A stretch of DNA of 64,000 nt from a virus (taxonomy: Duplodnaviria > Caudoviricetes). The stretch covers positions 32,001 through 96,000 of the IMG/VR virus record IMGVR_UViG_3300047272_000250, one strand, 5' to 3'. The position numbers and the translations under genes are program-made. Shown here one piece after another: positions 29,019-62,389 of this stretch (the stretch's first letter is position 1; every line of letters starts with the position of its first letter). The notes below the pieces were generated by a model. The model worked only from the letters and a program-made list of their open reading frames with translations. It was not told the DNA's origin and made no database searches.

Positions 29019-29303
29019 TTAAATAAAGTGTTTGGTAATTGCGCCAATAGCCAGAATACTCCAGCCTACGTTAAAGTAGATAATAGTAGGCAAGGTCTTG
29101 ACTGTAGAAGTAAGGATCAAGGCAATGCTGGAAACTAAGGCAAATATATAATACCACCAAAACTGGATTCCAAAAAGTAGCCCAGGAATGATAATACTGA
29201 GCTTTGTGCTAAACGCCCAAAATTCAATTATATTTGTCTTAGTCCAGTAAGACCTTTGACCTAATTGCTTCGTTACTTCTAATATCTCTTTAGGAGTCAG
29301 CAT
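29019..29303 (-). CDS. Small membrane protein
   Basis: About 3 hydrophobic helices; overlaps the halogenase stop. Confidence 0.65.
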   Translation of the reverse strand: MLTPKEILEVTKQLGQRSYWTKTNIIEFWAFSTKLSIIIPGLLFGIQFWWYYIFALVSSIALILTSTVKTLPTIIYFNVGWSILAIGAITKHFI

Positions 29304-30882
29304 TATGGATATTTTCCTTCAGCCATTGATACATAGTAGGTGAAGCATCTGCTTCTTCCTGCCAAAGTTTACGGAATATATCCCATGTCTTCCAAGTCTC
29401 TTTACAGTATTCATAATAGTCAATACCGTCATAATGTTTCCATCTTTCTACGGTATGTTTATTAACAGGGAAATAATTTAGACCTGTAGCAATACAGTGA
29501 ATTCCACCTAGCCCATCGTATCTCTGTCTATTAATATGAAGATCTGCTAGATCATTGAATCCAACAACAGTAGAAGGATCTAGGGCAGGCACCTGTGGCT
29601 GATACTCTTTTTCAGTGATAGCTCTCCAATACTCTGTATCAGTTCTATTAGAAAGAGCATAGTGCTGAGCTACAAACTCCTTGAATCCAAGATACTGTCT
29701 GCGTGTTGTAGCATTGTATGCATCTCGATCCCATTGAGTAATAGTTCCTCTGGAGAGAGTTTTTACTAGCTTGTCCAAGAACTCGTGGACTGTAAATAGA
29801 CCATTAGATTCTAGTGGTTCAATAAATCCAGCAGCAAATCCAATAGCAACCACATTCTTTACAAATGTGCGTCTATGAATTCCTACCTTAAACTTAATAT
29901 AACGATATTCATAAGAGTCTACATCACGATTTGGATCATGGATAGTCATCTTGTCTGATCTTAGATGATTCTTGAATTGCTCTAGAGCTTCTTCCTTAGA
30001 TACAAATTTATCGCTAAATACGTAACCTGTTCCAATGCGTTCCCAGGAAGGGATATTCCAGACCCAGCCATTTTCAATTGCAGTACAGTTAGTGTATGGT
30101 TCCATCTCCTTTTCCTTATCTGTATAAGGAATACGTGTAGCCCATGCGCTATTATTTGGAAGCATGTGCTCAAAGTTATCGAATGGCTCACCTAGTGCTT
30201 CTTCTAGGAGCATAGACTTAAATCCAGTACAGTCAATAAATAGATCTGCAGTTAACTTTTCTCCAGTAGTAAGAGTTACTGATTCAACCCCTGATTCGCC
30301 CGTAGAGACTTCTGTCACTGTATCTGCAACTACTTTTACTCCACGAGGAATACAGTAGTTATTCTTTATCCACTGACCAAACTTAGTAGCATCAAAATGG
30401 TATGCAACATCTTGATTAAAGTTAAAGTTACCTAGCTTTCCTGACTCATTCCAAGATAGCTTGTTTTGCTCAGCCAAAGTAAGTGCTGGGTAAAAAGTAC
30501 GAGCATAATCTGCTACGTCTAGATCTGGAAACTTAGCCTTCTTAACATACCAGTCATTAAGATCATTTACTGTTCCGTCTAGGAACACCTTGCCAAATGG
30601 ATAGTGGAATCCACCAGCATCTTTCTTATAAAAATCTGTAAACTTAATAGACATCTTATATACAGCATCTGTTGCTGGCATAAAGTCTTTTTCATCAATA
30701 CCAATCCACTTTGCCCATCCAGTAATCCCGCCTAGTGTGGATTCTCCAACACCAATAATCGGATAATCTGGTGATTCAATTACAACAATTTCCTTATCTG
30801 GAAATGCTCTAACCATAGTAGCAGCGGACATCCATCCAGCTGACCCTCCACCAACAATAACAATCTTATTTAAATTAATCAT
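29290..30882 (-). CDS. Flavin-dependent tryptophan-halogenase-family protein (PrnA-like)
   Basis: GGGSAG FAD motif, GVGEST, catalytic-Lys region AVYKMSIKF, AYHFDA, FIDCTGF, GWVWNIP (WxWxIP) and FIEPLES. Confidence 0.92.
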   Translation of the reverse strand: MINLNKIVIVGGGSAGWMSAATMVRAFPDKEIVVIESPDYPIIGVGESTLGGITGWAKWIGIDEKDFMPATDAVYKMSIKFTDFYKKDAGGFHYPFGKVFLDGTVNDLNDWYVKKAKFPDLDVADYARTFYPALTLAEQNKLSWNESGKLGNFNFNQDVAYHFDATKFGQWIKNNYCIPRGVKVVADTVTEVSTGESGVESVTLTTGEKLTADLFIDCTGFKSMLLEEALGEPFDNFEHMLPNNSAWATRIPYTDKEKEMEPYTNCTAIENGWVWNIPSWERIGTGYVFSDKFVSKEEALEQFKNHLRSDKMTIHDPNRDVDSYEYRYIKFKVGIHRRTFVKNVVAIGFAAGFIEPLESNGLFTVHEFLDKLVKTLSRGTITQWDRDAYNATTRRQYLGFKEFVAQHYALSNRTDTEYWRAITEKEYQPQVPALDPSTVVGFNDLADLHINRQRYDGLGGIHCIATGLNYFPVNKHTVERWKHYDGIDYYEYCKETWKTWDIFRKLWQEEADASPTMYQWLKENIHNADS

Positions 30883-47879: not shown

Positions 47880-48130
47880 GGGATATATCGCTATATGTTT
47901 GAAGAGCTTCAAGAAGCTCTTTGGCTATCCCGTCGAAATCAATAGTTCCGTTATTAAAGTATTTTCCAGATTGGATACACTTTTGTAGTGTATTTGCAAT
48001 GTATTTTTGTTTATCCATACATATCACCTCTAATACAGTATAACAAATAATCAGTATTAGTACAAATACTATATATGCCCTGTTTATTTATATATTATAG
48101 AAATGTTAATAAAATTTTAAATTTGACTAG

Positions 48131-48205
48131 TAGGGATACTTGGATTTGAACCAAGAGTAGATTGCATATAAGACAATTGCTTTAACCAGATTAAGCTATA
48201 TCCCC
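48131..48205 (-). tRNA. tRNA-Ile (anticodon UAU)
   Basis: Cloverleaf with GGGGATA/TATCCCT acceptor, TAGCTTAATCTGGTTAAAGC D-arm, ATTGT-CT[TAT]AT-GCAAT anticodon arm and CTTGG-TTCAAAT-CCAAG T-arm; CCA not encoded. Confidence 0.9.
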
Positions 48206-48513: not shown

Positions 48514-48616
48514 TTAAAATTGTAACAGCAAAGAATTTTCTATGTCAACCCCGCCTGGTCCAAATTCATAAAAATGTTAACAAATTTCGTTTTTGTATCA
48601 TTCGTCTTTTTTAAAA

Positions 48617-48632
48617 TCGAACAGGCGTTCGA
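48617..48632. promoter_or_regulatory. Actinobacterial LexA (SOS) box
   Basis: TCGAAC-AGGC-GTTCGA, an exact TCGAAC-N4-GTTCGA. Confidence 0.75.
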
Positions 48633-48770
48633 ATAGCGAGCACAGATGTGGGCTAAATCACATAGATAAATGTCCGAATTGTCCGTGTTGGTGCTTGAAT
48701 TTGTCAGTCCCCTGTGTTATAGTTCTACTATAAGAAATTAGCAAATAGCTAATAAAGAAAGGAATTCAAA

Positions 48771-48983
48771 ATGAATTCACTAAATACACTAACAGTAGTA
48801 GTAGAACCTAGCCACTCAATGGCTTCATCTAACACTAAGAATAATAATATCTTCCGCCTTGCTAATGGTAACTACATTAGCCGTATGGCTTATGTTTATA
48901 TGGTAGCCTCTGAGAATATGGTTTCTCACCGCTACCTAACACCTAACGAAAGTCGTTGGGTATTCGCTAATCGTGTGGCGTAA
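48771..48983 (+). CDS. Early hypothetical protein
   Basis: AGAAAGGA RBS after the first early promoter. Confidence 0.75.
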   Translation: MNSLNTLTVVVEPSHSMASSNTKNNNIFRLANGNYISRMAYVYMVASENMVSHRYLTPNESRWVFANRVA

Positions 48984-49062
48984 CTCACACGATAATAACT
49001 TGACTTTATCCAATCTAATCAATTAAACTTATACCATAACAAAAAGAATAGGAAATAAATAA

Positions 49063-49774
49063 ATGACAATAACTTACTCAATCTGGCAGGGTTCCCGCCT
49101 TCTATCAATCGACAATATCGCTAACGATATTAAAGAAATTGACCACTTAATGAATTCGCTAAATGCTAGCGACTTAGGCAAGAAAGTTAAATTCTCTGCC
49201 AACGTTCAAGGAATTAAGGTAACTAAGTAAATGGGTTACGTTGAATTCTTTCGCCTTGATACTGATGGGGCTGGCTGGGTAGATTTATCTAATGCCCGCC
49301 CTAGCGAATTGCTTGACCTAGAAATAGGGCTTGAGTTAGAGGGTAGCCCTGTGCTACCATTAAACGGAACTTTATTCTCTACACCTGAGAATAACTAGAA
49401 GAATAGGAAATAAAATAAATGGAAATAACATTAGAACTATCTAAATGGGGCTTTGGTCTTTACTCTCCTTGGTTTGGTATTGACCTAACTTGGGGCTTTA
49501 TTATCACCGCTGGAATTGTTACCCTCGCTGTTAAGTTTCTTAATAAGCGTGGTTTATATTTCTCTAATAAGTTTAGAAAGGTTAAGTAATGATGACACGC
49601 AAGGACTACGTTAAAACCGCCGCAATTCTAAAAACACATTTTGAAAATAACCCGCAACTTTCTCAAGAAGTCTTCGAGGATTTAGTTGATGAATTTTCTT
49701 TAATGTTTGAAGAAGATAACGAAAGATTTGACTCTGATAAATTTTTAGAGGCTTGTCTTCCTGATTTAGAATAA
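49063..49774 (+). CDS. Operon of four small early ORFs (49063-49230, 49231-49398, 49419-49589 membrane, 49589-49774)
   Basis: Read manually; RBS and coupled start/stop codons; TTGACT-N18-TAAACT promoter at 49000. Confidence 0.65.
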
Positions 49775-49795
49775 AAAAAATAAATAAATAAAATT

Positions 49796-49826
49796 GCTGC
49801 GACGATCTCGCAGCTTTTTTATTTTA
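49796..49826 (+). terminator. Rho-independent terminator
   Basis: GCTGCGA-CGATC-TCGCAGC-TTTTTT. Confidence 0.8.
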
Positions 49827-50049
49827 TAAATAAAAAAATAAATAGTTGAAATTTCAACTAAAAGCGGGCCACCCCGCTGTCGGGCGTGTCTGTTAAGAAA
49901 CTTGTGGATAACCCCTGAAAAAATGTGATGTGATTCACATTTCAAAATGTCCGATTTGTGGCATTACTGGTCAGTAGATGTCAGACCCCCCTGCTATACT
50001 TCTAGGTATAGAAAGTTGAGAAAGGTTCTCAAACTAGAAAGGAATTCAA

Positions 50050-50610
50050 ATGAATTCAAATGTAATAATCGAAGTATGTAAAACACATACACCTAATAAG
50101 TCTGCTAAGTCATTCCATAATGACACATGCTACACATTCTGCGAAGTTTGTGAAAACAATATCGAATCATGGTACATGGACTATGATTCAGACCGCTTAA
50201 GCGGTTGGTCTTCATGGAAGGTTTCTAACTAATGAATAAATTAAAAAATCAGATAGATGAAAATGAATTCTATCAAATCGTTGATGAAATGTTCTATTGC
50301 TGTGATGAGTCACAGTTTAGACACTATTGCAAAAAGCATACCGAACTAATGGGTTGCTACTATTGCGAATTTGACTATACACAAGAATGTGAGTGTAAAT
50401 AAATGAAAGATTTATTTTGTAAAGGTTGCGATGAATTCGTAATTGAAATGTCCGAAGAGGAATCAGAATTTATTTCCGTCCTCTGCTCTAATTGTTGGGA
50501 GATATAAAATGGAAAAAGATATTTTTGGTTTTGCAGATGCAATTCAATTAGACCATTTAACAAAAGAAGAGTTAGAAGAAATTGCAATCATGTTAGGAAT
50601 TAAAGAATGA
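50050..50610 (+). CDS. Cluster of small, mostly Cys-rich early ORFs (50050-50232, 50232-50402, 50403-50507, 50509-50610)
   Basis: Coupled ORFs with CxxH/CxxC motifs. Confidence 0.65.
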
Positions 50611-50698
50611 ATTTTTATCAAACGTTTTTCGTAAGCGGTAATGCATTGTTTTGGTTTTCAATGATCAATTTATTTATTGGTTTTTATTTATTTGTAAA

Positions 50699-50732
50699 AG
50701 AATAAATATGCAGAGCTTTGCATAAAAATGCG
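50699..50732. promoter_or_regulatory. Tandem ARG-box-like operator (second copy at 53087-53120)
   Basis: AGAATAAATATGCA-N6-TGCATAAAAATGCG; 20-bp period. Confidence 0.6.
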
Positions 50733-50931
50733 GGGCACCACGCATTCGGGCGTGTTGCAATTAAGACACGCCGATAAAACCCCATAAAATTTGTGAGATC
50801 GAACACAGTGTGATGTAGAACACATGTGACCTACACCACAAAGTCCCAAATGTCCGATTTATACCCCTCAAAATGTCAGACCCCTCTGCTAGAATACTAT
50901 GTATAAAGATTAAAAAAGAAAGGTGGTCAAA

Positions 50932-51087
50932 ATGACTACATTAACAGAAACTCTATTCAGCACTATCGTGCATGACTTTCACAATGGGGGAGTAAAATCC
51001 TCTTATGGGCTAGATGCCTACACACGCAAGGAAATCCTTGCTTATCTCTTACGCTCTAAAGGCTGTAATTGTATAAAATGTCTGTGA
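50932..51087 (+). CDS. Early hypothetical protein (51 aa)
   Basis: AGAAAGGT RBS; MTTLTETLF...GCNCIKCL. Confidence 0.7.
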   Translation: MTTLTETLFSTIVHDFHNGGVKSSYGLDAYTRKEILAYLLRSKGCNCIKCL

Positions 51088-51180
51088 TGTAAATCACCCC
51101 GACACTTTGGGGAAAATCCCCCAAAATGTCAGACCCCCATGCTAGAATTGCTACCATAAACAAAAAGAAAGAAGGACAAA

Positions 51181-51384
51181 ATGTCAGCAAATGTTTATTC
51201 AGTTGAAAGCCTCTTAGTAGGTCAGGAATACTTTTCTAAGAGTGTTCGTGGAAAAATCGTAAGTGCAGAAAAGCACCCCCATGCAGTATGGTATGAAGGT
51301 TGCGAAAGTTACCTTGTTGAAATCCGCCCGCAGTATGGAATTAAAAATACATACCGCACAATTGCCGTTAAGACTTCTAACTAA
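51181..51384 (+). CDS. Early hypothetical protein (small beta-barrel-like)
   Basis: GAAGGA RBS after an early promoter. Confidence 0.75.
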   Translation: MSANVYSVESLLVGQEYFSKSVRGKIVSAEKHPHAVWYEGCESYLVEIRPQYGIKNTYRTIAVKTSN

Positions 51385-51397
51385 GAAAAGAGAAAAA

Positions 51398-51709
51398 ATG
51401 ATAAACGCAACAATTACAACTTACTCAGGCGATAAGAAAGTTATCCCTTTTCAAAATCGTGAAGCCGTTCAGAAATTCATTCAAGAATTACCTAAGCGAC
51501 TTTCTAAAAACACTTCCGTATTCTTTGAGTGCGATATCTTTTCAATTTCAGGAACAATCAGAGGAGAAAAATAAATGGGACAATTAAAAGAAATTATTGC
51601 CGTTGCTTGTGATGAGTGCGGTGGTGCAGGATTTTTATTTTGGGGCGATGAAAATAACTATGATGTAGAAACTTGTAATTGCGAATTTGATGAAACGGAG
51701 TTAATTTAA
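51398..51709 (+). CDS. Two small early ORFs (51398-51574; 51575-51709 Zn-finger CDECGGAG...CNC)
   Basis: Coupled ORFs; the track start at 51263 is probably too early. Confidence 0.6.
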
Positions 51710-52126
51710 TGTTGATGACTAATGGAGATTTACTAGCAATTATTATTGCGCTACTAGGTTTAACTGTTGCACTTGCTTATCAGTTTATTTTTATCCGCCG
51801 ACTAACGGAAGAAAATGAAATGCTATGGGAAAAACTAACTGATTTAATTAAAGAAAAAAATAAATAAATGGAAATTTTATTTTTAATCGGGATGATCGTC
51901 GGCGCTGCATTTTTTATTCTTGCAGCTGTCGGTGATATCTTTTTTTAGTTGAACTTTCAACTAATTTAGACACGCCCGAGCGAGGCAGGCCGCCTGTGGA
52001 TAACTCTGTGGATTAAGTACGATGTGATTTTTCTCACAAAATTATTTACGACTTACCGACGGGTAGCCTAAAAAATGTCAGTAAAGTCTGATAGACTTGT
52101 ATTATTCACAACACGAAAGGGAAACT

Positions 52127-52237
52127 ATGAACCTCGATGAATTCAAGGCACACGTTATCGCACAACGTGAAGCAAGCAAGGCAGAAGCCTTGTCAGTCCT
52201 ATCCACTACAATTAAAGAAAAGAAAGAAGGTAAATAA
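52127..52237 (+). CDS. 36-aa early peptide containing an embedded promoter
   Basis: GAAAGGG RBS; MNLDEFKAHVIAQREASKAEALSVLSTTI. Confidence 0.65.
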   Translation: MNLDEFKAHVIAQREASKAEALSVLSTTIKEKKEGK

Positions 52238-52239
52238 TA

Positions 52240-52455
52240 ATGGACTATCTCTACTCAGTTACTTGCACTTATGACGGAGACCGCTCACCACATTGGGTTG
52301 GTCGCTATGACAACGCTATCGACGCAGTTAATTCTTGGAATAAGTTTGTTGATTGGGGTATGGCTAACGAATACTCTACAATAAATTTCTCAGAGCCTAA
52401 TGGCAAAATGCACACAAAGATTTTTTATCGTAATGGAAATGTAGGTGGTAAGTAA
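52240..52455 (+). CDS. Early hypothetical protein
   Basis: RBS and promoter upstream. Confidence 0.75.
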   Translation: MDYLYSVTCTYDGDRSPHWVGRYDNAIDAVNSWNKFVDWGMANEYSTINFSEPNGKMHTKIFYRNGNVGGK

Positions 52456-52661
52456 TGGTAGAACTAAAGCACTCGCTTAATTTTGTAAGCGAAATAGATG
52501 AAACCTCTCGACTAGGTAAAATGCTAATTAGCCTGCCTGCGGATAAGCAAAAGGCTATGCTCGAAGATGCGTTAAAGGATGCAATTCTTCCTACGCTACT
52601 TCCTGAACTTGAAAGAATTAACGAAGGTGCCTCATGGGCAATACTAAAGGTGGTTAAATAA
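52455..52661 (+). CDS. Early hypothetical protein
   Basis: TAATG coupling. Confidence 0.7.
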   Translation: MVELKHSLNFVSEIDETSRLGKMLISLPADKQKAMLEDALKDAILPTLLPELERINEGASWAILKVVK

Positions 52662-52936
52662 TGGGAAGCAATATGGCATATGACCTAGCAAGCGATGAAC
52701 TAGGATTAGATTTGGAAGTGGCTATTGCTATGCACTTGCAGTCTAATCACTACCCGCCCGTTCCTACTTCGATGGTAGAACCTTGCATCGAAGCAATTGA
52801 CGCATACTATGAAGAGGACTACAACAGAGCAATTCCTATGCCTGAAGGCGTATTCTATAAGGGAATGAAAACTGCACCAGCCTCAGCAATAATCGAGCAA
52901 CACCACTTATCAGCGTGGCTACCAGAGGAGTATTAA
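52661..52936 (+). CDS. Early hypothetical protein
   Basis: TAATG coupling; HLQSNHYPPVP motif. Confidence 0.75.
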   Translation: MGSNMAYDLASDELGLDLEVAIAMHLQSNHYPPVPTSMVEPCIEAIDAYYEEDYNRAIPMPEGVFYKGMKTAPASAIIEQHHLSAWLPEEY

Positions 52937-52937
52937 A

Positions 52938-53093
52938 ATGGAAAACGAAAAAGTAAAACGTGTGCAGGAGTTGCGTCGCAGTAATGCTGCGACTGCAATT
53001 CCGTCTAAGAAAAAATATAAAAGAAAAACTAAAAATAAAAAAGAAAAAATATTGCAATACTACAGCGATCTAGTATCACCATTCTTTAAATAA
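52938..53093 (+). CDS. Basic 51-aa peptide
   Basis: GAGGAG RBS; ELRRSNAATAIPSKKKYKRKTK. Confidence 0.65.
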   Translation: MENEKVKRVQELRRSNAATAIPSKKKYKRKTKNKKEKILQYYSDLVSPFFK

Positions 53094-53251
53094 ATATGCA
53101 AAGCTCTGCATAAATATGCGGGGCACCCCGCAGTCGGGCGTGTCTCTATTAAGGACACTGTGATTTTTCTCACAAAATTTAGGGCGGATCTGATTTGGAA
53201 ATGTCAGTCTAATTTGATAGTATTAATATACCCGTTAAGAAAGGTCAACTC

Positions 53252-53974
53252 ATGACAAAATTAAAACGCTCTAATGATAGAAAGGTGGCTAACCTTGTCA
53301 CAAAAAACGGAAAGCAAGCAGCAATCGCTAACACATTCGGCCTACCTGCTGGAAAGAATTTCTCGTGCCCTGGTGCCACTAGTATTTGTGAAAGCGTATG
53401 CTACGCAGGCAAGCTTGAAAAGTTATTCAAGGGAGTAAAAACTAATCTCCTGCACAATTGGGACCTATTGAAGAATGCGGACCTGCAGGAAATGTATACT
53501 CTTCTCTCAGAAATGGTTGCAGAATTTAAAGCTGAATGCGTTAAGAAAGACGCACCTATGCTATTCCGTATCCACTGGGACGGAGATTTCTTTAATGAAG
53601 ACTACACACGTGCATGGCGCCTAGTAATTGAAGAACAGCCAGACATTCAATTTTGGGTTTACACTCGTGTAAAGTCTGCAGCACTCATCCTTAAGGATAT
53701 CGAAAACTTATCTCTATATTATTCAACCGATGATGAGAATCTTCCAATTGCGACGGACCTAAAGCAAAACAGTGGTGTACGTCTTGCATACCTAGGTAAG
53801 ACTTTCGCATTAACAGAAACTAAGATGAAAGAAATTACAGGAAAAGTTGGTGCACGGTGCCCTGAAAATAATAAATCAATTCCATTAATTTCTAGCAATG
53901 GGTCCGCATGCGTTTCTTGTGGTCTCTGCGTATACGGTAAGGCTGACATTAGATTTTCTGCAACGAAAAAATAA
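53252..53974 (+). CDS. Gp88-like (GP88 family) Cys-cluster protein
   Basis: FGLPAG...CPGA...C...CYA, FRIHWDGDF, FWVYTR and CP...CVSCGLC motifs. Confidence 0.78.
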   Translation: MTKLKRSNDRKVANLVTKNGKQAAIANTFGLPAGKNFSCPGATSICESVCYAGKLEKLFKGVKTNLLHNWDLLKNADLQEMYTLLSEMVAEFKAECVKKDAPMLFRIHWDGDFFNEDYTRAWRLVIEEQPDIQFWVYTRVKSAALILKDIENLSLYYSTDDENLPIATDLKQNSGVRLAYLGKTFALTETKMKEITGKVGARCPENNKSIPLISSNGSACVSCGLCVYGKADIRFSATKK

Positions 53975-54257
53975 AATGATATATCTGATCATACTTACTA
54001 CGGTGGGAGTACTTGCCACTCCCGCCGTAGTTATCTCTTTACTTTATAATTCTGTAAATAAAAATTATAAAAAAGATTTTTAAAAGATGCGGCCCAGCTC
54101 GCTACTGGTGAGTATGTCAAATTACGGGCGTGTGATTTTTCTCACACGATTTTACGGGGACAATTCGGACATTTTAACCATAATTAGGTATGTTCGATTA
54201 GTAATTGTCAGTCAGGTCGTGTAGAATTATATTATCAAACAAACGAAAGGAAGCACA

Positions 54258-54407
54258 ATGACAACAACTCCAAAAATCGGGGAAACCTTCACAACTGCTA
54301 AGTCTGGTGTATCAGGCAAGGTTGAGGAAGTAGTCAAGAACGCAAATGGCTCTTTGCGTGTTCGCCTCAATGTTGAGGGAACAGAACGCTGGACAACAAT
54401 CAAGTAA
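54258..54407 (+). CDS. 49-aa early protein (paralog of 54968..55150)
   Basis: GAAAGGA RBS; GETFTTAKSGVSG...RW. Confidence 0.75.
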   Translation: MTTTPKIGETFTTAKSGVSGKVEEVVKNANGSLRVRLNVEGTERWTTIK

Positions 54408-54488
54408 GAAGGTTGGGGCTACTGGTAAATGTCAGTAGCCCCTGCTACACTTAAATATAACAACCCAAATAGAAAAGGAATAAATGCT

Positions 54489-54890
54489 ATGGCAAGAGCA
54501 ATCTCAGTAAAGGTGGCAACACCAAAGGTAATCAAGGCTTTGGAAGCAAAGTTGGCAGATAGCAAGAGCGCAATCACCAACAATGAAAAGAAGCGTAAGG
54601 AATACGAGAAAACAGAAAAGGCTTGGGCTAAGGAAGTTGCAGACCTAGTATTCAAGCACATCTCAAAGGCAGAAGTTTCTGCACATGAGAACTATCGTAA
54701 TGAACTCAATGTAAATCTCACACTTCCAGCAGGAACAATCAAGTTGCCTGAGAAGCCTTCTATCGAACTTGAAAATGAACTTGGTCGCTATGAAGTTCAG
54801 GAAATCGAGAACGCAATTCGTATTCTCAAAATGACAGATGAGGACACAGTTAATGCCTCAACTTTCAAGTCAATCGCACAATATCTATAA
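54489..54890 (+). CDS. Early coiled-coil protein
   Basis: True start is MARAISVK at 54489 (AAAGGA RBS); the track start lies inside the promoter. Confidence 0.78.
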   Translation: MARAISVKVATPKVIKALEAKLADSKSAITNNEKKRKEYEKTEKAWAKEVADLVFKHISKAEVSAHENYRNELNVNLTLPAGTIKLPEKPSIELENELGRYEVQEIENAIRILKMTDEDTVNASTFKSIAQYL

Positions 54891-54905
54891 TTCCCAATAG
54901 GGAAC

Positions 54906-54934
54906 TCAACCTGAGCAAGTTGGAAAACTGCTCA
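54906..54934 (+). ncRNA. H-type RNA pseudoknot (intergenic)
   Basis: S1 UCAAC/GUUGG, S2 UGAGCA/UGCUCA, L3 AAAAC. Confidence 0.55.
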
Positions 54935-54967
54935 ACCAACCCACATAAAGAAAAGGAAAATAAATAA

Positions 54968-55150
54968 ATGGCACCAATTACAAATACAACAACAGGTCGT
55001 TTCTATAAGAAGGGCGACACTTTCACAACAGGTAAGTCAGGAATTACTGGCGCAATCACAGAAATTATTTCTGTCCGTCCTAATCTAACTAAGTTAGGTT
55101 TGCAAACAGAAAATGGTTTGCGTTGGGCTATGGTAAAAATCGGCGCATAA
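54968..55150 (+). CDS. 60-aa early protein
   Basis: GDTFTTGKSGITG...RW. Confidence 0.75.
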   Translation: MAPITNTTTGRFYKKGDTFTTGKSGITGAITEIISVRPNLTKLGLQTENGLRWAMVKIGA

Positions 55151-55153
55151 CTT

Positions 55154-55242
55154 TCATCGGGGGATGAATAACTACACGCAACACTAAGTGTAGTTGGGAG
55201 TCTAGGTTACCTTTCTTTCCTAGGCTCCCGCAAACCCGATGA
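55154..55242 (+). ncRNA. Three-way-junction RNA with anti-SD loop
   Basis: Outer stem UCAUCGGG/CCCGAUGA; 8-bp and 11-bp hairpins; loop UUACCUUUCUUU. Confidence 0.6.
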
Positions 55243-55398
55243 TCGTAGCTTATCCACAAAGTTATCCACAGGCGCCCTGGGTCGCAAATTCGGACATTTA
55301 CGACATTAAGGAAAAATGCCTGAGATTGCCAGAATAATTAGACAGATGTCACCCCAGTCTGCTAGACTTAATATATCAACCTAACGAAAGAAGGAATC

Positions 55399-56412
55399 AT
55401 GGCTCACAACCTAGAAGAACAAAATGGTCAAGTTGCTTTTGCATTACGTGGAAAGCCTGCTTGGCACAATCTCGCTAACAAAATTTTCGGCGACGAAGAA
55501 ATTGTTACAACACAGTCAATGCTTTCAGAAGCAAAACTTTCTAATTGGAATGTCCGCTTAGAAGCAATGGCAGACCACACGCCTGAATCTTATCGTGATT
55601 CATCTGGCGCTCAATTAGTTCTTCGCACAAATCCATTTGACAATGGCACTGACGTGCTTTCTGTTGTCGGTTCTCGATACAAGGTAGTGCAGAATGAAGA
55701 ATTGTTTGCGTTTGCAGATAACATTCTTGACGGCGACGAATCTTGCAAGTGGGAATCTGCGGGTTCTCTAAAGAAGGGCAAAGTTGTATTCGGCTCTCTT
55801 ACAGTTCCCCGCACAATGGTTCTTGACCCACAAGGTGCTAACGATGAGACAAAACTCTATCTAATCGTTTGGACATCACACGATGGTTCTGTTGCTGTTC
55901 AGGCTGCGATTACACCTGTTCGTGTAGTTTGCCAAAACACCCTTAACCTTGCAATGCGTAATGCAAAGCAATCTTTCAAGATTCGCCACACACAGACAGC
56001 AGAAGGCAAAATTGTTGCTGCTCGTGAGGCTCTTGGTTTGACTTTCGCTTATGCTGATGAGTTTGAGAAGGAAATGCAAGCCCTTTTCAATGCGAAGATT
56101 ACTGACAAGAAGTTTTCGCAAATCATCAACACACTTTACCCAAAGCCTGAGAAGGATTCTAAGGGTTCTCTAAAGAAGTGGGAGAACAAGGTTGTTCTCA
56201 TTGACGAGTTGTATCACAACTCACCAACTAACGCTAACATCAAGGGCACAGCGTGGGGTGCGCTTAACGCTATGACTGAGCGCCTTGATTACTATCGCAC
56301 AGCCCGCACAGGTAATGGCGAATCTCTTATGTCTTCTGCTTCTGGTTTTGACCCAGTAATTACAGCAGAAAAAAATAAGTTAGCAAAACAAATCTTGGCT
56401 CTGGCTAAGTAA
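55399..56412 (+). CDS. DUF932 / TIGR03299 family phage-plasmid protein
   Basis: PAWH.L, VG.RY.VVQN, ESAGSL..G, SHDGS, TPVRVVCQNTL, IRHT and GTAWGALNA motifs. Confidence 0.9.
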   Translation: MAHNLEEQNGQVAFALRGKPAWHNLANKIFGDEEIVTTQSMLSEAKLSNWNVRLEAMADHTPESYRDSSGAQLVLRTNPFDNGTDVLSVVGSRYKVVQNEELFAFADNILDGDESCKWESAGSLKKGKVVFGSLTVPRTMVLDPQGANDETKLYLIVWTSHDGSVAVQAAITPVRVVCQNTLNLAMRNAKQSFKIRHTQTAEGKIVAAREALGLTFAYADEFEKEMQALFNAKITDKKFSQIINTLYPKPEKDSKGSLKKWENKVVLIDELYHNSPTNANIKGTAWGALNAMTERLDYYRTARTGNGESLMSSASGFDPVITAEKNKLAKQILALAK

Positions 56413-56419
56413 TAGGAGA

Positions 56420-56447
56420 GGGGGGCGAAAGCCCCCCTTTTTTATTT
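56420..56447 (+). terminator. Rho-independent terminator
   Basis: GGGGGGC-GAAA-GCCCCCC-TTTTTT. Confidence 0.9.
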
Positions 56448-56574
56448 GATCATTTTTTGATTTGACAAATCCAGCTTGATCGGGATGGGTCGCTGTGATT
56501 TTTCTCACATTAAGTACGATAAGAAAAATCCCCCAGGATTTGTGGATGTCAGTCGTTTTTGCTATAGTTAATGT

Positions 56575-56790
56575 ATGACAGAAGAAAACCATTGGCAGTT
56601 TAAAGTAGCATGTGCTCCACAGGATTTTGATTTATTCTTTAGCAACGCAAAAGGTAAGCGGGCTCAGGCATTAGCCATATGTGGTAAATGCCCAGTCTCA
56701 AATGAATGTTTAAACCATGCGATAGAGAATAATGTAGAGCACGGGATATTCGGAGGAAAGACACCTGAACAGAGAAGGAAGATGAAATGA
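56575..56790 (+). CDS. whiB: WhiB-family Fe-S transcription factor
   Basis: C...D.FF...ICxxCPV..ECL..A...HGIFGG.T..QR; leaderless from the promoter at 56547. Confidence 0.93.
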   Translation: MTEENHWQFKVACAPQDFDLFFSNAKGKRAQALAICGKCPVSNECLNHAIENNVEHGIFGGKTPEQRRKMK

Positions 56791-57107
56791 ATACCATTAA
56801 TGAATTAATTAATGAAATCTATGAAGACAATTACTCACATCTAGAGTTTGAAGAGAATATGGGTGGGCTAGATTGTGATTGTAATATCCATATGGTGCTG
56901 AATACTATTGCTACATACGCAGGAATCGAGGTTGGATAATGCTAGGTTATACTAAAGAGGATTTAGATCAAATGGCTAACTCTATTCATGACGCCAAGTT
57001 GTTCTATATACTAAATTCAGATGTCATTAAGGTTGATGAGGACCCTATTGTTGATGGCTTACTGAAAGCCCACGACTTTTTACAGGGACTATGGGCGGAG
57101 GGATATT

Positions 57108-57341
57108 TTGACTAAATCATCTCATTTCATAGAATATATGAAGTTACATGAGATTAGTCTATTACAAGATGCTGAAAAGCTTCAAGACCTTATGAGTAAT
57201 TATGAATATAACTACGATTCAGATGAATATAGAGAGTTAGAGATTGCTGATTATCATAATACTGGAGAACTAATTGCAACCCGCCACCTTTTGTCAGTGG
57301 CAACTGATATAATGAATTCCTCTAACGAAAGGTATGAATAA
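57108..57341 (+). CDS. Early hypothetical protein
   Basis: GGAGG RBS with TTG start; embedded promoter at the 3' end. Confidence 0.65.
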   Translation: MTKSSHFIEYMKLHEISLLQDAEKLQDLMSNYEYNYDSDEYRELEIADYHNTGELIATRHLLSVATDIMNSSNERYE

Positions 57342-57604
57342 TGGAAACTACTACTCTCCCGCCTCATCTGCAGCGAATGGTCAATGCAGGTGTCTCAGGA
57401 CTAGACATCATGCATGGAGAACTAAAGAATCTAATGCTCATTGCTGAGCGGGACCTAGATATGGCTATCAAGGCTGAGGAAGAATCAGAAGAGGCTATGG
57501 ATTCTATGGAACGCACACGTTGTGAGGGGGTTGTAGATACTCTCGTAGACCTGTACAATTTAACTTACCAACTATCATTTGCTATAGGAGATAAGAATGC
57601 TTGA
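57341..57604 (+). CDS. Early hypothetical protein
   Basis: GAAAGG RBS; coupled. Confidence 0.72.
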   Translation: METTTLPPHLQRMVNAGVSGLDIMHGELKNLMLIAERDLDMAIKAEEESEEAMDSMERTRCEGVVDTLVDLYNLTYQLSFAIGDKNA

Positions 57605-57917
57605 AGCAGAACGTCAGTCTCGTGTCCATAATACTCTTAAGGATATGTATAAACAACTAACCGAACTAGAGGTCTTCCCTTCTTTAGTTTGGACTTGGAC
57701 CTATGACATTATCAGGTCCTTTGAAAACGACTCTGATTACAAATTCTTGATGACAGAAGAACAGTGGTTTGATTTACTCTGGAACAACGTTGATAAAGCA
57801 AACTTCTCATTAACTTACGGGGACGAGCAAATATATGAAGACATTCGTGATTGGTTGCTTGATAATGATGTTATGGTGGATGTGTTGGCAGGTGAAGAAG
57901 ATTCGGGAGATGAATAA
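57597..57917 (+). CDS. Acidic early hypothetical protein
   Basis: AGGAG RBS. Confidence 0.72.
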   Translation: MLEAERQSRVHNTLKDMYKQLTELEVFPSLVWTWTYDIIRSFENDSDYKFLMTEEQWFDLLWNNVDKANFSLTYGDEQIYEDIRDWLLDNDVMVDVLAGEEDSGDE

Positions 57918-58171
57918 TGAATAACTGTGATCAATGCTTCTATGGCACTTACACTTACTATAATGGTATGGATGAGAAACAAGAAATAGATTGTCCCTTC
58001 TGTGCTACCCGTGTTCCTAGTAATTGGAGACGTATGACAGAAGATCAAAAATCAACTTGGTTGAAATTAATTCCCAATCCAGATAAATAGCTGGTGCGGT
58101 TCCAGTCGCTGTCAATTTGTCGACATTAAGTACGATTTGTAAAATCCCCCAGAATCCTGTAGTATTAAGAC

Positions 58172-58363
58172 ATGACTGAAACTACCATGGAATATGTATT
58201 AAAAGTTGAAGATAGATGTGACAAGTGTCAGGCTCAGGCATTATACTTATGTAAGGGTGTATCTGGAGAGCTGATGTTTTGCCGCCACCACTTTAATGAA
58301 AACCAGGAATCACTAACCAATTGGGCTTACGAGATCGTAGACGAGTCCCAAAAAATATCCTAA
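58172..58363 (+). CDS. Small Zn-binding protein of an actinobacterial family
   Basis: DRCDKC.AQA...GELMFC.HH; leaderless. Confidence 0.75.
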   Translation: MTETTMEYVLKVEDRCDKCQAQALYLCKGVSGELMFCRHHFNENQESLTNWAYEIVDESQKIS

Positions 58364-58445
58364 ATAATTCCTATTTGGAATTGACAAATGCCCTGAGAAT
58401 CAGGGATAATTAATATATCGGAAAACATATGGTGGGAGGTGTAAT

Positions 58446-58568
58446 ATGACAAAGCGTGAATATCTAGTATCTCTTGGACAAACTGTTGGTAAGCGAGGAC
58501 GTTTCTCTAAGGAGCAAGTAGAACTTCTGAAGCAAGCAGAAGCCAAAGGTCAATCCTTTACAAAGTAA
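58446..58568 (+). CDS. 40-aa Lsr2 DNA-binding-domain-like peptide
   Basis: MTKREYLVSLGQTVGKRGRFSKEQVELLKQA; GGAGGT RBS; TTGACA-N18-GATAAT promoter; downstream hairpin. Confidence 0.7.
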   Translation: MTKREYLVSLGQTVGKRGRFSKEQVELLKQAEAKGQSFTK

Positions 58569-58634
58569 TTAAAAGGGAGGGGAGTTAAATCCCCTCCCAC
58601 TAAATCCCTATAAGCACTCACAGAAGGAAGAACA

Positions 58635-59402
58635 ATGCCAAATTGGGTATACAACACATTAACAATTCAAGGTCCTAAGTCTGAGATTGATGCAATCAAA
58701 GATAGATTAAATAAGCCTTTTACACTGGCTCAAGAAACATACGGAATGGGTGACATTAGTTCATCAGGATTCCCGACCAAACTTACACAGGTTAGTTATT
58801 CTAATCCTGTCTTTGCATTCTTCAACATCCACTCATATAAGGATGAAGGTATTACTGACGAAGAGTATGCCTGTCAGCCAAAGCGTGATGGTGTAGATAT
58901 GAAGGACCCTAATTGGTTTGCTAAGTCTGTTGAGTTTGCTAAAACTCAGAAGGATTGGTATTCATGGAATAATTCTAATTGGGGCACTAAATGGGATGTA
59001 GCAGTTCGTGATGAGGACGAGTATCCCAATACAGAACTAATTGAACATAAGTCAGAGGGCGAAGACCAATGGCTTGTCTACAAGTATGAAACTGCTTGGT
59101 CACCTGCCGTAACAATCTTAACTAAACTATCTAACTTAGTTCCTAACTCCGTGCTCACATTAGAGTATGAGGAGGAAACAGGTTGGGGAGGCGAGTATGA
59201 GATTATCCGTGGTGAAGTCAGAGAACTCATGGAGTATGAGAATCGTTGCTATGCCTGCCAATCTTTTGACTGTGTAGAGTATTGCGAGAACGACTGTGGT
59301 GAGTTCTGCTCTAACTGTAATCAGGGCTCATGGCAGGACGAAAGTGCTATGGCAGAATGCGAAGAGCACAAGGTCTTACTCAAAGAGGAGGTGGAGGCAT
59401 GA
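58635..59402 (+). CDS. DUF1281/YubB ferredoxin-like family protein
   Basis: MPNW..N.L.I.G, DWYSWN..NWGTKW, YETAWSP and Y.EE motifs. Confidence 0.82.
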   Translation: MPNWVYNTLTIQGPKSEIDAIKDRLNKPFTLAQETYGMGDISSSGFPTKLTQVSYSNPVFAFFNIHSYKDEGITDEEYACQPKRDGVDMKDPNWFAKSVEFAKTQKDWYSWNNSNWGTKWDVAVRDEDEYPNTELIEHKSEGEDQWLVYKYETAWSPAVTILTKLSNLVPNSVLTLEYEEETGWGGEYEIIRGEVRELMEYENRCYACQSFDCVEYCENDCGEFCSNCNQGSWQDESAMAECEEHKVLLKEEVEA

Positions 59403-60058
59403 AAAACAAATCATGGACAAAGTACACCTTTGCCTGTGATCCTGAAGAATGTGATACTTTAATTGAAGTAACATGTGATGACTATGGATTCCCACTAGGT
59501 GTGATGCAAATCACATGTCCGTGTGGGCGCAAGCTTGACATCTTGTCAGTGGCCAATGCTACAATTGAATCAACTACTACAGAAGGAAACCATATGGAAA
59601 CAACATCAACAATCGGCTCAGATGCATTGCACTCACCTGCAGTGGAGTACAACCCTAATCAATTAGTTACATATAAGGTCCTAAGTGGATACTCAGACCC
59701 TGAGTATAAAACGGACAAGGTAACATCCCTGGAATGGGACCTGCACAACGGACGTCAGTCACAAAAGCGTGTGGGCCTACTAGAATCAAACATTAATTCA
59801 GTTAAAGAAATCATTACTGAATCATATGCTGAGTCAGAAGACCAAGAAACTTTGCGTTCAATCGCAGAGGCTTTGGGCATTGAACTAACCCGTACAATCG
59901 AATGGAGCGCTACAATTGAGGTTAGCGGTACCATGGAAGTAGACCTCCTAGAGGACGTCGACATCGAGCAGGAAATCTATGACAATCTTTACGTAGATTC
60001 TCAGAATGGCAATATCGAAATCGGGGACACCGAAGTTTGTAACGCACACGAGTGCTAA
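59399..60058 (+). CDS. Hypothetical protein (Zn-ribbon N-terminus; probable internal start at 59594)
   Basis: GGAGG RBS before MKNKSW; second promoter and AGAAGGA RBS before METTST. Confidence 0.65.
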   Translation: MKNKSWTKYTFACDPEECDTLIEVTCDDYGFPLGVMQITCPCGRKLDILSVANATIESTTTEGNHMETTSTIGSDALHSPAVEYNPNQLVTYKVLSGYSDPEYKTDKVTSLEWDLHNGRQSQKRVGLLESNINSVKEIITESYAESEDQETLRSIAEALGIELTRTIEWSATIEVSGTMEVDLLEDVDIEQEIYDNLYVDSQNGNIEIGDTEVCNAHEC

Positions 60059-60137
60059 TCTAACATAGGGAGAGGTGGGGGGTTCTTGCCAGCCCCCCAC
60101 CCAATATGATATTATCAAATAGACGAAAGGTGTGTGT

Positions 60138-60437
60138 ATGGCTATCGGAGATAAGGATATTGACGAAAGCAAGTTAGCAGGACTAATCGAAGATAGTCTT
60201 TCAGATGTGCGTTTTGACAAGATGAACTTTGCTTGGCATATGGGAAATAAATCTCCTCGTATCCAAAGAGAGTTTTGGGAATTGACTTATGCGTTTATTC
60301 AGGAAATGGCAGATTACTACAAGCGAGGCTTGGTAGATACTAAGCACTTAGCCGTAGCCCAAATGTGCTATGAAGTCAAGACCTTTATGGAAGGCGACTA
60401 TGACAAAGACCAACTAGCCCTTGATTTAGGGCTCTAG
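60138..60437 (+). CDS. Hypothetical protein
   Basis: GAAAGGT RBS; likely start MAIGDK. Confidence 0.7.
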   Translation: MAIGDKDIDESKLAGLIEDSLSDVRFDKMNFAWHMGNKSPRIQREFWELTYAFIQEMADYYKRGLVDTKHLAVAQMCYEVKTFMEGDYDKDQLALDLGL

Positions 60438-60491
60438 GCAGCTCAGGTGATCGAGTTGACGGGTGTCAGTGGGACAGGCTATACTTAATAT

Positions 60492-60710
60492 ATGGAAATC
60501 TACGAAGAATACCCAGAAGGCGCTAGTGGAGAACGTTGGTCTGACCTATGTGAATACATAGAGGCAGTAACCAAAGAAGGCTCTACTATAAAAGAAATCA
60601 TTGCTGAGAACCTACCTGAAATGCAGGGCAAGGACTACTCTCAACCTTTATCGTTTGATAACGACGAAGTTTGGGCTATACTAAAATGGTTAAATAGAGA
60701 CGGAGAATAG
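60492..60710 (+). CDS. Hypothetical protein (leaderless)
   Basis: ATG 7 nt after the TATACT of the promoter at 60464. Confidence 0.7.
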   Translation: MEIYEEYPEGASGERWSDLCEYIEAVTKEGSTIKEIIAENLPEMQGKDYSQPLSFDNDEVWAILKWLNRDGE

Positions 60711-60711
60711 T

Positions 60712-61062
60712 GTGGGAGCAAGAACTAATTTCGTAATTAAGACAACCGAGAATGAGAATGAGAACATAGTTCTTTATTCACATTGGGGTGGGGATAGCGG
60801 CGTACAGGATTTTGCGTGGGCTATTCAAAAGGCAATGCCACGTTATGGTGATACATCATACTTCACACGTATCTTAGTTTCATCATTGATTAACGACCAA
60901 TGGGATTCAGAAACGGGATTCGGTTTATATGTTGGACCCGTTACTCACGAAGAATCATACGAGTATAAAGAAATAGATTTAGTTAATGGTACTGTAACAA
61001 TTGGCGACCATACTACATCAATCAAAGCATTCCTTGAATATCATCAAGGAGCTAGTGTCTAA
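60712..61062 (+). CDS. Conserved phage hypothetical protein
   Basis: MGAR...LYSHWGG...D.SY..RI motif. Confidence 0.75.
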   Translation: MGARTNFVIKTTENENENIVLYSHWGGDSGVQDFAWAIQKAMPRYGDTSYFTRILVSSLINDQWDSETGFGLYVGPVTHEESYEYKEIDLVNGTVTIGDHTTSIKAFLEYHQGASV

Positions 61063-61104: not shown

Positions 61105-62389
61105 GGCGGGGTGAATCGCAAATAAAAATTACCCATTACGACGATGATCATAAATTCCCAGAATTTCCTTGACATTCATTATAGCTATAGGTATAATCCA
61201 TAGATCTATGTCGCAATATATCTAATTAGACATTACGACGAATGCAATAAATTCCCAGAATTTCTGGATAATTGCATAATGTCTACAAGGTTATGTAGAC
61301 TTATATATTATCCTTTCTTCTGTGTTCTATTAACTCTCTTTACAGGAATAGACTTCTTATTCTTTCCCGCCTTCTGATCTCTTTTAAATTTACTATTCTG
61401 AGCTGGCCCACGGCCAGCGGCGGAATCAGAAGTAACTACATTATTACTCATATATAAACCTCCCTATATACATAGTATATAACACTTGTAGAAATATATC
61501 CATATTTTGTACATATTTAGATCAATATTAATATAAATATACATTATTATGATAGATTTATCTAACTTTATGATCAATTTTGTACCAATTTTGCCCTATT
61601 TTTATAGGGTTTTATAGCCAAATATATCTCATATATTGAGATATATTTGGCTAATTATTGACAAGATCGATATGTCCATTATGTCCGATATGAGATATAT
61701 CATCATATGAGATTATATGGAAAAGTATTGACATTACGATCCCTTTATGATAGGCGTTCAAATACCCATATATAATAACTATATACAACTAATACTGAAT
61801 ATATCATAATGTGCCCTGTATATGGGAATATTCACCACTTTACTCCACTATACTCCACATAGCCTAAAAAGCCTTACAAGGCTGATACAAGGCAGAAAAG
61901 GGAGGGGATAAGGAACTTTCCCTTGAAGCTATATCCTTGGCCTTAAAAGGCCTTATTGATAGCCGTAAGCTAAATCCTCTATATGATCAATAAAGGCATT
62001 ACGTCTTATAATTAATATATATGTTATATGTAGTATATCTACTCTATAGATAAGGGCTATCTTCGATCTTCCCGCCCGAAATTTAAATTTATGTCTCGTA
62101 TTCAGATCGAGCTTACGAATTGTTATTCGGCGATATCCGTATTTCATTGAGTGCACCATATTGAGTAGTCGCTCATAGTCTGGTGATTATCCCAGTAATC
62201 GATATTATTTTTAGATATCCCGCATTTTTGGCAAGTTTCCCATGTGTCATGGATTGGGGTCTCACTTTTCGGCTTCACTTAGTCGCTCCTTATAAGGTGT
62301 TATAGGGTATATATTTAATTGATCTTAAGGTGTTATAAGACCTTATTCCCATTCTATATTATTAATAGATAGCCAGTCAAGATAATAAA

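Follow-up and report, generated by a model that had tools for sequence, protein, structure and literature searches.

The window analysed here, a stretch of 64,000 nucleotides (nt), comprises bases 32001-96000 of the 104,393-bp IMG/VR virus record IMGVR_UViG_3300047272_000250, a genome with a 127-bp terminal repeat that is rated complete and has a GC content of 40.2%. Nearly all of the phage genes lie on the - strand, including, in the window, those for the tape measure, portal, protease and ribonucleotide reductase and for a lysin made up of CHAP and PG_binding_1 domains; genes outside the window encode PolIII alpha, RecA, RuvC, a Cas4-like nuclease, ThyX, Cpn10, a proteasome-like protein and WhiB. 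The main exception in the genome is a + strand block of about 45 small open reading frames (ORFs), among which only GP88 (PF17338), DUF932 and a DUF1281_C-like protein gave family matches. The many small orphan genes, the dense promoters and the divergent orientation suggest that this block contains early genes. The subject of this report is the set of promoter-like elements of the form TGTCAG-N10-TANNNT that punctuate the block, and their likeness to the promoters read by PafBC, the DNA-damage activator of Actinobacteria. The block and the candidate promoters are as follows (the ATG is that of the gene downstream).

48702..61062 (block about 48.6-61.1 kb), + strand: main + strand gene block, ~45 small ORFs in short operons
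48702..48723, + strand: PafBC-type promoter 1, TGTCAGTC..TGtTATAGT; ATG 48771
49979..50000, + strand: PafBC-type promoter 2, TGTCAGAC..TGcTATACT; ATG 50050
50874..50895, + strand: PafBC-type promoter 3; ATG ~50933
51127..51148, + strand: PafBC-type promoter 4; ATG 51181
52076..52097, + strand: PafBC-type promoter 5; ATG 52128 (small ORF)
52191..52212, + strand: PafBC-type promoter 6, within the small ORF of promoter 5; ATG 52240
53202..53223, + strand: PafBC-type promoter 7, before the GP88-family gene (53252-53974)
54206..54227, + strand: PafBC-type promoter 8; ATG 54258
54430..54451, + strand: PafBC-type promoter 9; real gene start ~50 nt downstream
55347..55368, + strand: PafBC-type promoter 10, TGTCAC variant, before the DUF932 gene (55399-56412)
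56547..56568, + strand: PafBC-type promoter 11; leaderless ATG 56575
57292..57313, + strand: PafBC-type promoter 12, TGTCAGTG..TGaTATAAT; ATG 57341
58226..58247, + strand: additional exact match, within an ORF, without the TG or the T at position 7 and with no start downstream
59544..59565, + strand: PafBC-type promoter 13, TGTCAGTGgccaaTGcTACAAT, close to the host recA box; ATG ~59594
60464..60485, + strand: PafBC-type promoter 14; leaderless ATG 60492

A pattern scan of the window finds 14 + strand matches to TGTCAG-N10-TANNNT, all within 48702-60485, and allowing TGTCRS adds the TGTCAC variant at 55347. Every + strand copy lies inside the phage's one + strand gene block; the window holds a single - strand match (7817), and the whole genome one further match outside the window, also on the - strand. 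Shuffled sequence yields 1.0 matches on average, and never more than 3, for the whole window and both strands, or about 0.1 per 12 kb of one strand, which agrees with the chance expectation of under 0.1 in 12 kb given in the preliminary description of this DNA. The 14 positions reported there were all correct (13 with TGTCAG-N10-TANNNT, plus TGTCAC at 55347), and the match at 58226 had been overlooked. As a promoter the latter is doubtful, and it may be a chance occurrence.

Twelve sites are followed, 25-50 nt downstream, by a GAAAGG-type ribosome-binding site (RBS) and an ATG. At the other two, an ATG lies exactly 6 nt past the -10 element (56547, with ATG 56575, and 60464, with ATG 60492), and the A of each of these leaderless starts is the seventh base after the -10. 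At promoter 9 the start given in the ORF list (54429) falls inside the motif itself. A -35-like hexamer is found at only a few sites (TTGAAT with a spacing of 17 at 48695, TTGACG with 18 at 60456 and TAGACA with 18 at 55339).

Relatives of the phage were collected through the DUF932 protein, which led to 217 related IMG/VR stretches, of which 80 loci (73-98% identity) were kept. The motif is present in all 80, in 3-18 copies each and always on the gene strand. Most of these loci carry TGTCAG about 50 nt upstream of the DUF932 start, where the present phage has TGTCAC. Five near-complete relatives (105-116 kb) contain 14-19 copies on one strand, mostly within one block of 10-14 kb, compared with 0-2 for a reversed-pattern control in the same five genomes. 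Across the 80 loci, the spacer is 10 nt in 598 sites, 9 nt in 2 and 11 nt in none.

The 689 unique sites from the relatives define the element more closely. Informative positions read aaaTGTCAGt(g/c)(c/g)c, then TG one base before the -10, then TAtAAT, and A at +1. The variable positions of the -10 are A in 85% and A in 77% of sites, the extended -10 TG is present in 65-79%, and the predicted +1, seven bases after the -10, is A in 61%. Columns at the -35 position carry at most 0.1 bit each, which supports the earlier remark that most sites lack a good -35. When sites are anchored on TGnTAnAaT alone, the hexamer found at the expected distance is TGTCAG in 289 cases and TGTCGG in 44, and the minor variants (TGTCGT, TGTCAT, AGTCAG, AGTCAA) all retain GTC. 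In one relative (G305), TGTCGG occupies 7 of the 14 sites, six of them as TGTCGGTG. The idea that the motif is common to the Streptomyces BE-cluster relatives was rejected, since phage Annadreamy of that cluster has 1 match compared with 2 in the control.

These data also bear on the possibility that the sites are mere repeats of a duplicated promoter cassette with no shared regulator, or arose by chance. Neighbouring sites at 49979, 50874 and 51127 do share the extra bases TGTCAGACCCC, and other motifs are reused in intergenic cassettes. However, the shuffles exclude chance, the flanks beyond the box and the -10 are not conserved over the 689 sites, and host genomes carry the same box (see below), so that we regard this explanation as very improbable.

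The published PafBC motif is tGTCgg(N10)tA(N3)T, with its 5' part at -23 to -28 and no -35 element, and its GTC triplet, which is contacted by R46 and R50 of PafB, is near-invariant across Actinobacteria (PMC8635444). This promoter class, also called RecA-NDp, reaches other Actinobacteria, and recA combines a RecA-NDp box with an SOS box (PMC8223512). Short single-stranded DNA (ssDNA) activates PafBC (PMC11804915). As far as sequence can tell, the phage motif matches the PafBC class (PMC8635444, PMC11804915, PMC8223512) in its TGTCRG hexamer with the GTC core, in the degeneracy at R, in the 10-nt spacing, in the missing -35 and in the placement of the box at -28 to -23. It differs from the known PafBC promoters in its near-consensus -10 with an extended TG and in the preference for A over G at position 5. 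We consider it moderately probable that host PafBC, together with the housekeeping holoenzyme, reads these promoters.

A different reader would be a phage protein. The preliminary description had offered, as its alternative, a phage-encoded WYL or helix-turn-helix (HTH) activator outside the window, but the complete phage genome contains no WYL domain. Nor does it contain a sigma region 2 (Sigma70_r2) or a tyrosine or serine integrase, and the HTH search of the complete genome returned a single sub-threshold match, a 62-aa ORF (G000:C1:10114-10212(-)). A search for another promoter class serving the - strand genes found no over-represented dyad or 10-mer. One can still suppose an unrecognised phage protein, produced early or brought in with the virion, that attaches to the -26 box and then recruits sigma or remodels it in the manner of T4 MotA/AsiA, in which case the likeness to PafBC would be mimicry or convergence. 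Room for such a protein exists, since no family could be assigned to the majority of the block's ORFs or to many ORFs elsewhere. The 62-aa HTH ORF is a weak candidate, and the phage also has a WhiB-like protein; the WhiB family is known to contact region 4 of sigma. We nevertheless think a phage reader quite unlikely: the complete genome offers no WYL protein, sigma region 2 or convincing activator; the box, its R degeneracy, the spacing and the T(G/C) extension are those of host sites, for which the same reader is simplest; and if the block is expressed first, no phage protein would yet be available.

The identity of the host can be approached from the phage genes. The phage WhiB (PF02467, 41.9 bits) has four cysteines and the GVWGG sequence, and WhiB is generally taken to mark a phage as an actinophage (PMC6802176, PMC10914622). 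In its portal the phage shares 60% identity with Streptomyces BE-cluster phages. Judged by WhiB, the CHAP + PG_binding_1 lysin and the portal, the phage is an actinobacteriophage. The low GC content, the lake origin and the CRP-type sites had brought a cyanobacterial or Gram-negative host into consideration, which was rejected on the strength of the WhiB and the CHAP lysin. A mycobacteriophage was rejected as well, given the 40% GC and the absence of a near match among 50,697 phage records. The tests suggested in the preliminary description were framed around Mycobacterium; with a GC content of 40% and an origin in lakes, Nanopelagicales are likelier hosts.

Searches for WhiB homologues gave only unnamed proteins, several of them on phage-sized contigs, and the phage WhiB protein used as a query against genome contigs found no relatives. 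Host genomes were located instead by a DNA pattern for the WhiB sequence Cys-x2-Cys-Pro-Val...Gly-Val/Ile-Trp-Gly with A/T at third codon positions, which retrieved numerous genomes of Planktophila, Nanopelagicus and Nanopelagicaceae, among them a complete 1.33-Mb chromosome (G001). The IMG sample numbers of several relatives recur in the names of "ME" Nanopelagicaceae and Planktophila metagenome-assembled genomes (MAGs); sample 3300044622, for example, is the source of both a related locus (L028) and the MAG behind another locus (L173). Apart from two short matches to genes, a nucleotide search of 301 Nanopelagicales genomes yielded only a contig that belongs to this phage family. The contig (G271:C382, loci L277/L280) is syntenic with the phage block, with GP88, DUF932 and TGTCAG promoters, and lies in the bin of a Nanopelagicales MAG that serves as species representative; its presence there may hint at the host or else be a binning artefact. 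WhiB, the 40% GC, the lake origin and this contig make Nanopelagicales (acI) a plausible but weak choice of host order. In the reading that we favour, the sites are real promoters of a lytic freshwater actinophage, probably one of acI/Nanopelagicales.

The preliminary description called for a look at the predicted host for pafBC and for the motif at recA, and Nanopelagicales have both. Four of five genomes examined contain two adjacent WYL genes of about 305-330 aa. In the complete chromosome the genes next in line after the tandem WYL pair are a 60-aa ORF, tatC and those for a lipid kinase and a Hel308-type helicase, an order that we take to be that of pafB-pafC-tatA-tatC-helY (Rv2096c-Rv2092c) in M. 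tuberculosis. The first WYL protein matches M. smegmatis PafB over its full length (7P5X chain AY, 9FND; E 3e-36 / ~1e-36), and the second matches PafC (7P5X chain AX; E 6e-30). The PafB orthologue keeps R46/R50 (ERMFERDK). If Nanopelagicales are indeed the hosts, the host side would share with the known class both these residues and a recA that carries the box together with an SOS box.

Upstream regions of recA were compared in 33 Nanopelagicales genomes. A distal element, TGTCAG(TG/CC)-N10-TACCTT, followed 2 nt later by the SOS box GAACAGATGTTC, occurs in about 20 of the 33, and a proximal element, cGTC(A/G)GTG-N8-TACCTT, in about 26. The host recA box TGTCAGTGGCGCCTGCTACCTT resembles the phage site at 59544 (TGTCAGTGGCCAATGCTACAAT). 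In a wider set of 41 Nanopelagicales genomes, the arrangement TGTCAG-N10-TANNNT-N6-ATG was found 68 times, whereas the reversed control gave 2. Of these 68 host sites, 42 have T at position 7, with 27 instances of TGTCAGTG and 12 of TGTCAGTC by our own count, and the phage sites have the same preferences.

One Nanopelagicaceae region (L245, G001:C1:418000-433000) has six TGTCRG-N10-TANNNT matches in 10 kb, five of them with an ATG 6-7 nt later. The boxes stand directly before or beside genes for a DNA methylase, an HATPase_c_3 protein, a ResIII/DEAD helicase and a trypsin-like peptidase, and similar clusters of boxes occur at about 400-500 kb in other Nanopelagicales genomes. This 10-kb stretch may be a defence or mobile island under PafBC control.

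The preliminary description had proposed that the host's PafBC runs this gene block. That proposal is partly supported, by the architecture of the sites, the actinobacterial nature of the phage, the lack of a phage WYL protein and the presence of PafB/PafC orthologues and the recA box in the likely host order. The following sequence of events can be envisioned. Each promoter consists of TGTCRG(T)(G/C) at -26, a spacer of exactly 10 nt and a -10 of the form TAnnnT (here TGnTAtAAT), with no -35. The predicted first transcribed base is the A found 7 nt past the -10, a position indirectly supported by the ATG lying exactly 6 nt after the -10 at two phage sites and 68 host sites and by the 61% A at +1. 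The host PafB-PafC heterodimer would be activated by ssDNA, as is known in mycobacteria. The HTH of PafB would then bind the GTC of the box, and the heterodimer would bridge to region 4 of the housekeeping sigma ("sigma adaptation"). Activation would fire about 14 short operons with about 45 small genes, each operon closed by an intrinsic terminator. The ssDNA trigger might come from phage entry, replication or recombination (phage RecA, nuclease, RuvC), but this step is speculation. Intrinsic terminators, of which those at 49796, 53997 and 56411 are examples, do divide the block into short operons:

49796..49814, + strand: intrinsic terminator ending operon 1
53997-54031 and 56411-56446, in the + strand block: further intrinsic terminators

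A bolder version of PafBC control, which we hold to be rather doubtful, is that PafBC is strictly required for the block, that ssDNA from the phage genome activates it, and that the 14-19 boxes per genome copy titrate PafBC away from host repair genes and the defence-like island.

Canonical promoters flank the block:

48519..48548, - strand: canonical promoter TTGACA-18-TACAAT with TG, facing the tRNA-Ile and the - strand genes
61169-61197, + strand: perfect TTGACA-17-TATAAT flanking the block, with no obvious gene after it

The 61169 promoter may make an antisense or small RNA. Since -35/-10 promoters of the usual kind stand at the borders, omission of the -35 inside the block appears to be a choice rather than a habit of the host.

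These promoters could also be simply strong extended -10 promoters that the housekeeping holoenzyme uses alone, with TGTCRG serving as a modulator or as a decoy that draws PafBC from host repair or defence genes. The TAtAAT of the 689 sites (A 85%, A 77%), with TG in 65-79%, fits an extended -10 promoter well, and the TACCTT of host recA is further from consensus. A dispensable box, however, would not be expected to hold an exact 10-nt register (598 sites versus 0-2 at the neighbouring spacings), nor to show the flanking preferences of the host sites over hundreds of diverged promoters, and the canonical promoters elsewhere in the phage make the missing -35 look deliberate. As for the decoy, some 15 boxes per genome copy exceed the handful in a 1.3-Mb host genome, where the shortened box gives 8 matches versus 6 in the control (G001); a decoy role is in any case compatible with activation. 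Taken together, we judge promoters independent of PafBC to be unlikely.

Several points nevertheless count against control by PafBC. We infer the PafBC dependence, the early timing, the ssDNA trigger and the exact host, the last of these from WhiB, the 40% GC, the lakes and one binned contig, which is a weak basis. The -10 is near consensus and mostly TG-extended, unlike the TACCTT of host recA, so that the promoters could be active without PafBC and PafBC might only modulate them. Canonical TTGACA/TATAAT promoters are present at the block borders, and the lack of the motif in Annadreamy makes it a lineage-specific trait. For a lytic phage, an ssDNA-dependent activator seems a risky choice to control the first genes if the infection itself does not supply the signal, and the block may not be the earliest gene class.

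Other elements lie in and around the block:

48130-48205, - strand: tRNA-Ile, anticodon TAT, adjoining the block outside its edge
48617..48632, unstranded: perfect actinobacterial LexA (SOS) box TCGAAC-N4-GTTCGA, TCGAACaggcGTTCGA, at the head of the block
52023..52038, unstranded: CRP-type palindrome TGTGATTTTTCTCACA, one of six TGTGA-N6-TCACA

The LexA box immediately follows TAAAAT and precedes the first TGTCAG promoter by 69 nt, and this layout of a -10 followed by an SOS box recalls host recA. It was rejected as a trait of the phage family, as a similar box occurs in only 8 of the 80 loci. The six perfect TGTGA-N6-TCACA palindromes (49924, 52023, 53159, 54131, 56494, 59500) are the sole copies in the 104-kb genome. 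Each is located in the block and precedes a TGTCAG box by 43-75 nt, and four of them share the same 16-mer, TGTGATTTTTCTCACA. A host protein of the Crp/GlxR type, or else a regulator encoded by the phage, could bind there. Five promoters are preceded, at a distance of 24-57 nt, by the motif AAATGTCCGA(A/T)T, which occurs in both orientations (48670, 49947, 50850, 54165, 55290), and GGGCGTGTC/GACACGCC are likewise repeated in intergenic cassettes. DnaA-box-like 9-mers (TTATCCACA / TGTGGATAA) have four of their six genome copies in the block (49903, 51995, 55250-55270), including a tandem pair at 55250 and 55262, 3 nt apart; an origin or a region bound by DnaA may be located here.

Two further phage genes deserve mention. 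A 530-aa protein encoded among the structural genes (29290-30882, - strand) matches a phage "tryptophan halogenase" family (phrog_2928, E 2e-151). Outside the window, the N-terminus of the product of a - strand ORF (L084:4003-4539) matches the proteasome subunit family (PF00227, E 1e-8), and the genes for WhiB, ThyX and Cpn10 are nearby. The proteasome-like ORF is of interest because the Pup-proteasome system has been tied in the literature to the PafBC damage response.

To our knowledge, PafBC promoters are known solely as a bacterial repair switch. Our search of the literature on PafBC or RecA-NDp with phage or mycobacteriophage found no paper describing promoters of this type on a phage; one study reportedly concerns host PafBC and mycobacteriophage resistance. 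If the proposal is true, a lytic phage takes over a host activator, unlike T4, which brings its own, and unlike mere escape from a repressor. A very abundant family of lake phages would then run a whole gene block through the PafBC switch, and phage development in the commonest freshwater bacteria would be linked with DNA damage or with ssDNA that arises in the course of infection. Sigma adaptation could also be dissected with the help of hundreds of natural promoter variants. The natural host is hard to grow, but conservation of the box across Actinobacteria means that the promoters can be tested in Mycobacterium smegmatis, Corynebacterium or Streptomyces.

The sites differ in setting from the known PafBC class: they are on a lytic phage, number 14-19 per genome, are gathered in one block and precede small orphan genes rather than repair genes. 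The closest parallel among phages is provided by the T4 middle promoters, which combine a MotA box near -30 with a sigma-70 -10 element and are used through sigma appropriation by AsiA/MotA. Both systems have many phage promoters in which a box about 30 nt upstream replaces the -35 and an adaptor contacts, or here would contact, region 4 of sigma; the comparison of PafBC with T4 middle promoters has been remarked on before (PMC8635444). The T4 adaptors MotA and AsiA are, however, phage-encoded and remodel sigma, whereas here no phage adaptor was found in the complete genome and the box is that of the host.

Temperate phages provide a second parallel, in that they have genes wired to the SOS response and are induced through LexA or RecA. 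Expression tied to a host DNA-damage signal would be common to both, and the present phage has its one perfect LexA box at 48617. The difference is that the proposed mechanism is activation by a WYL-type ssDNA sensor rather than derepression, and no integrase/repressor module is found here. WYL proteins that sense ssDNA and link DNA damage or phage attack to transcription are exemplified by BrxR, CapW and DriD (PMC9122601, PMC11662680, PMC9186387). Those proteins act for the host, whereas in the present case the target sites are located on the phage.

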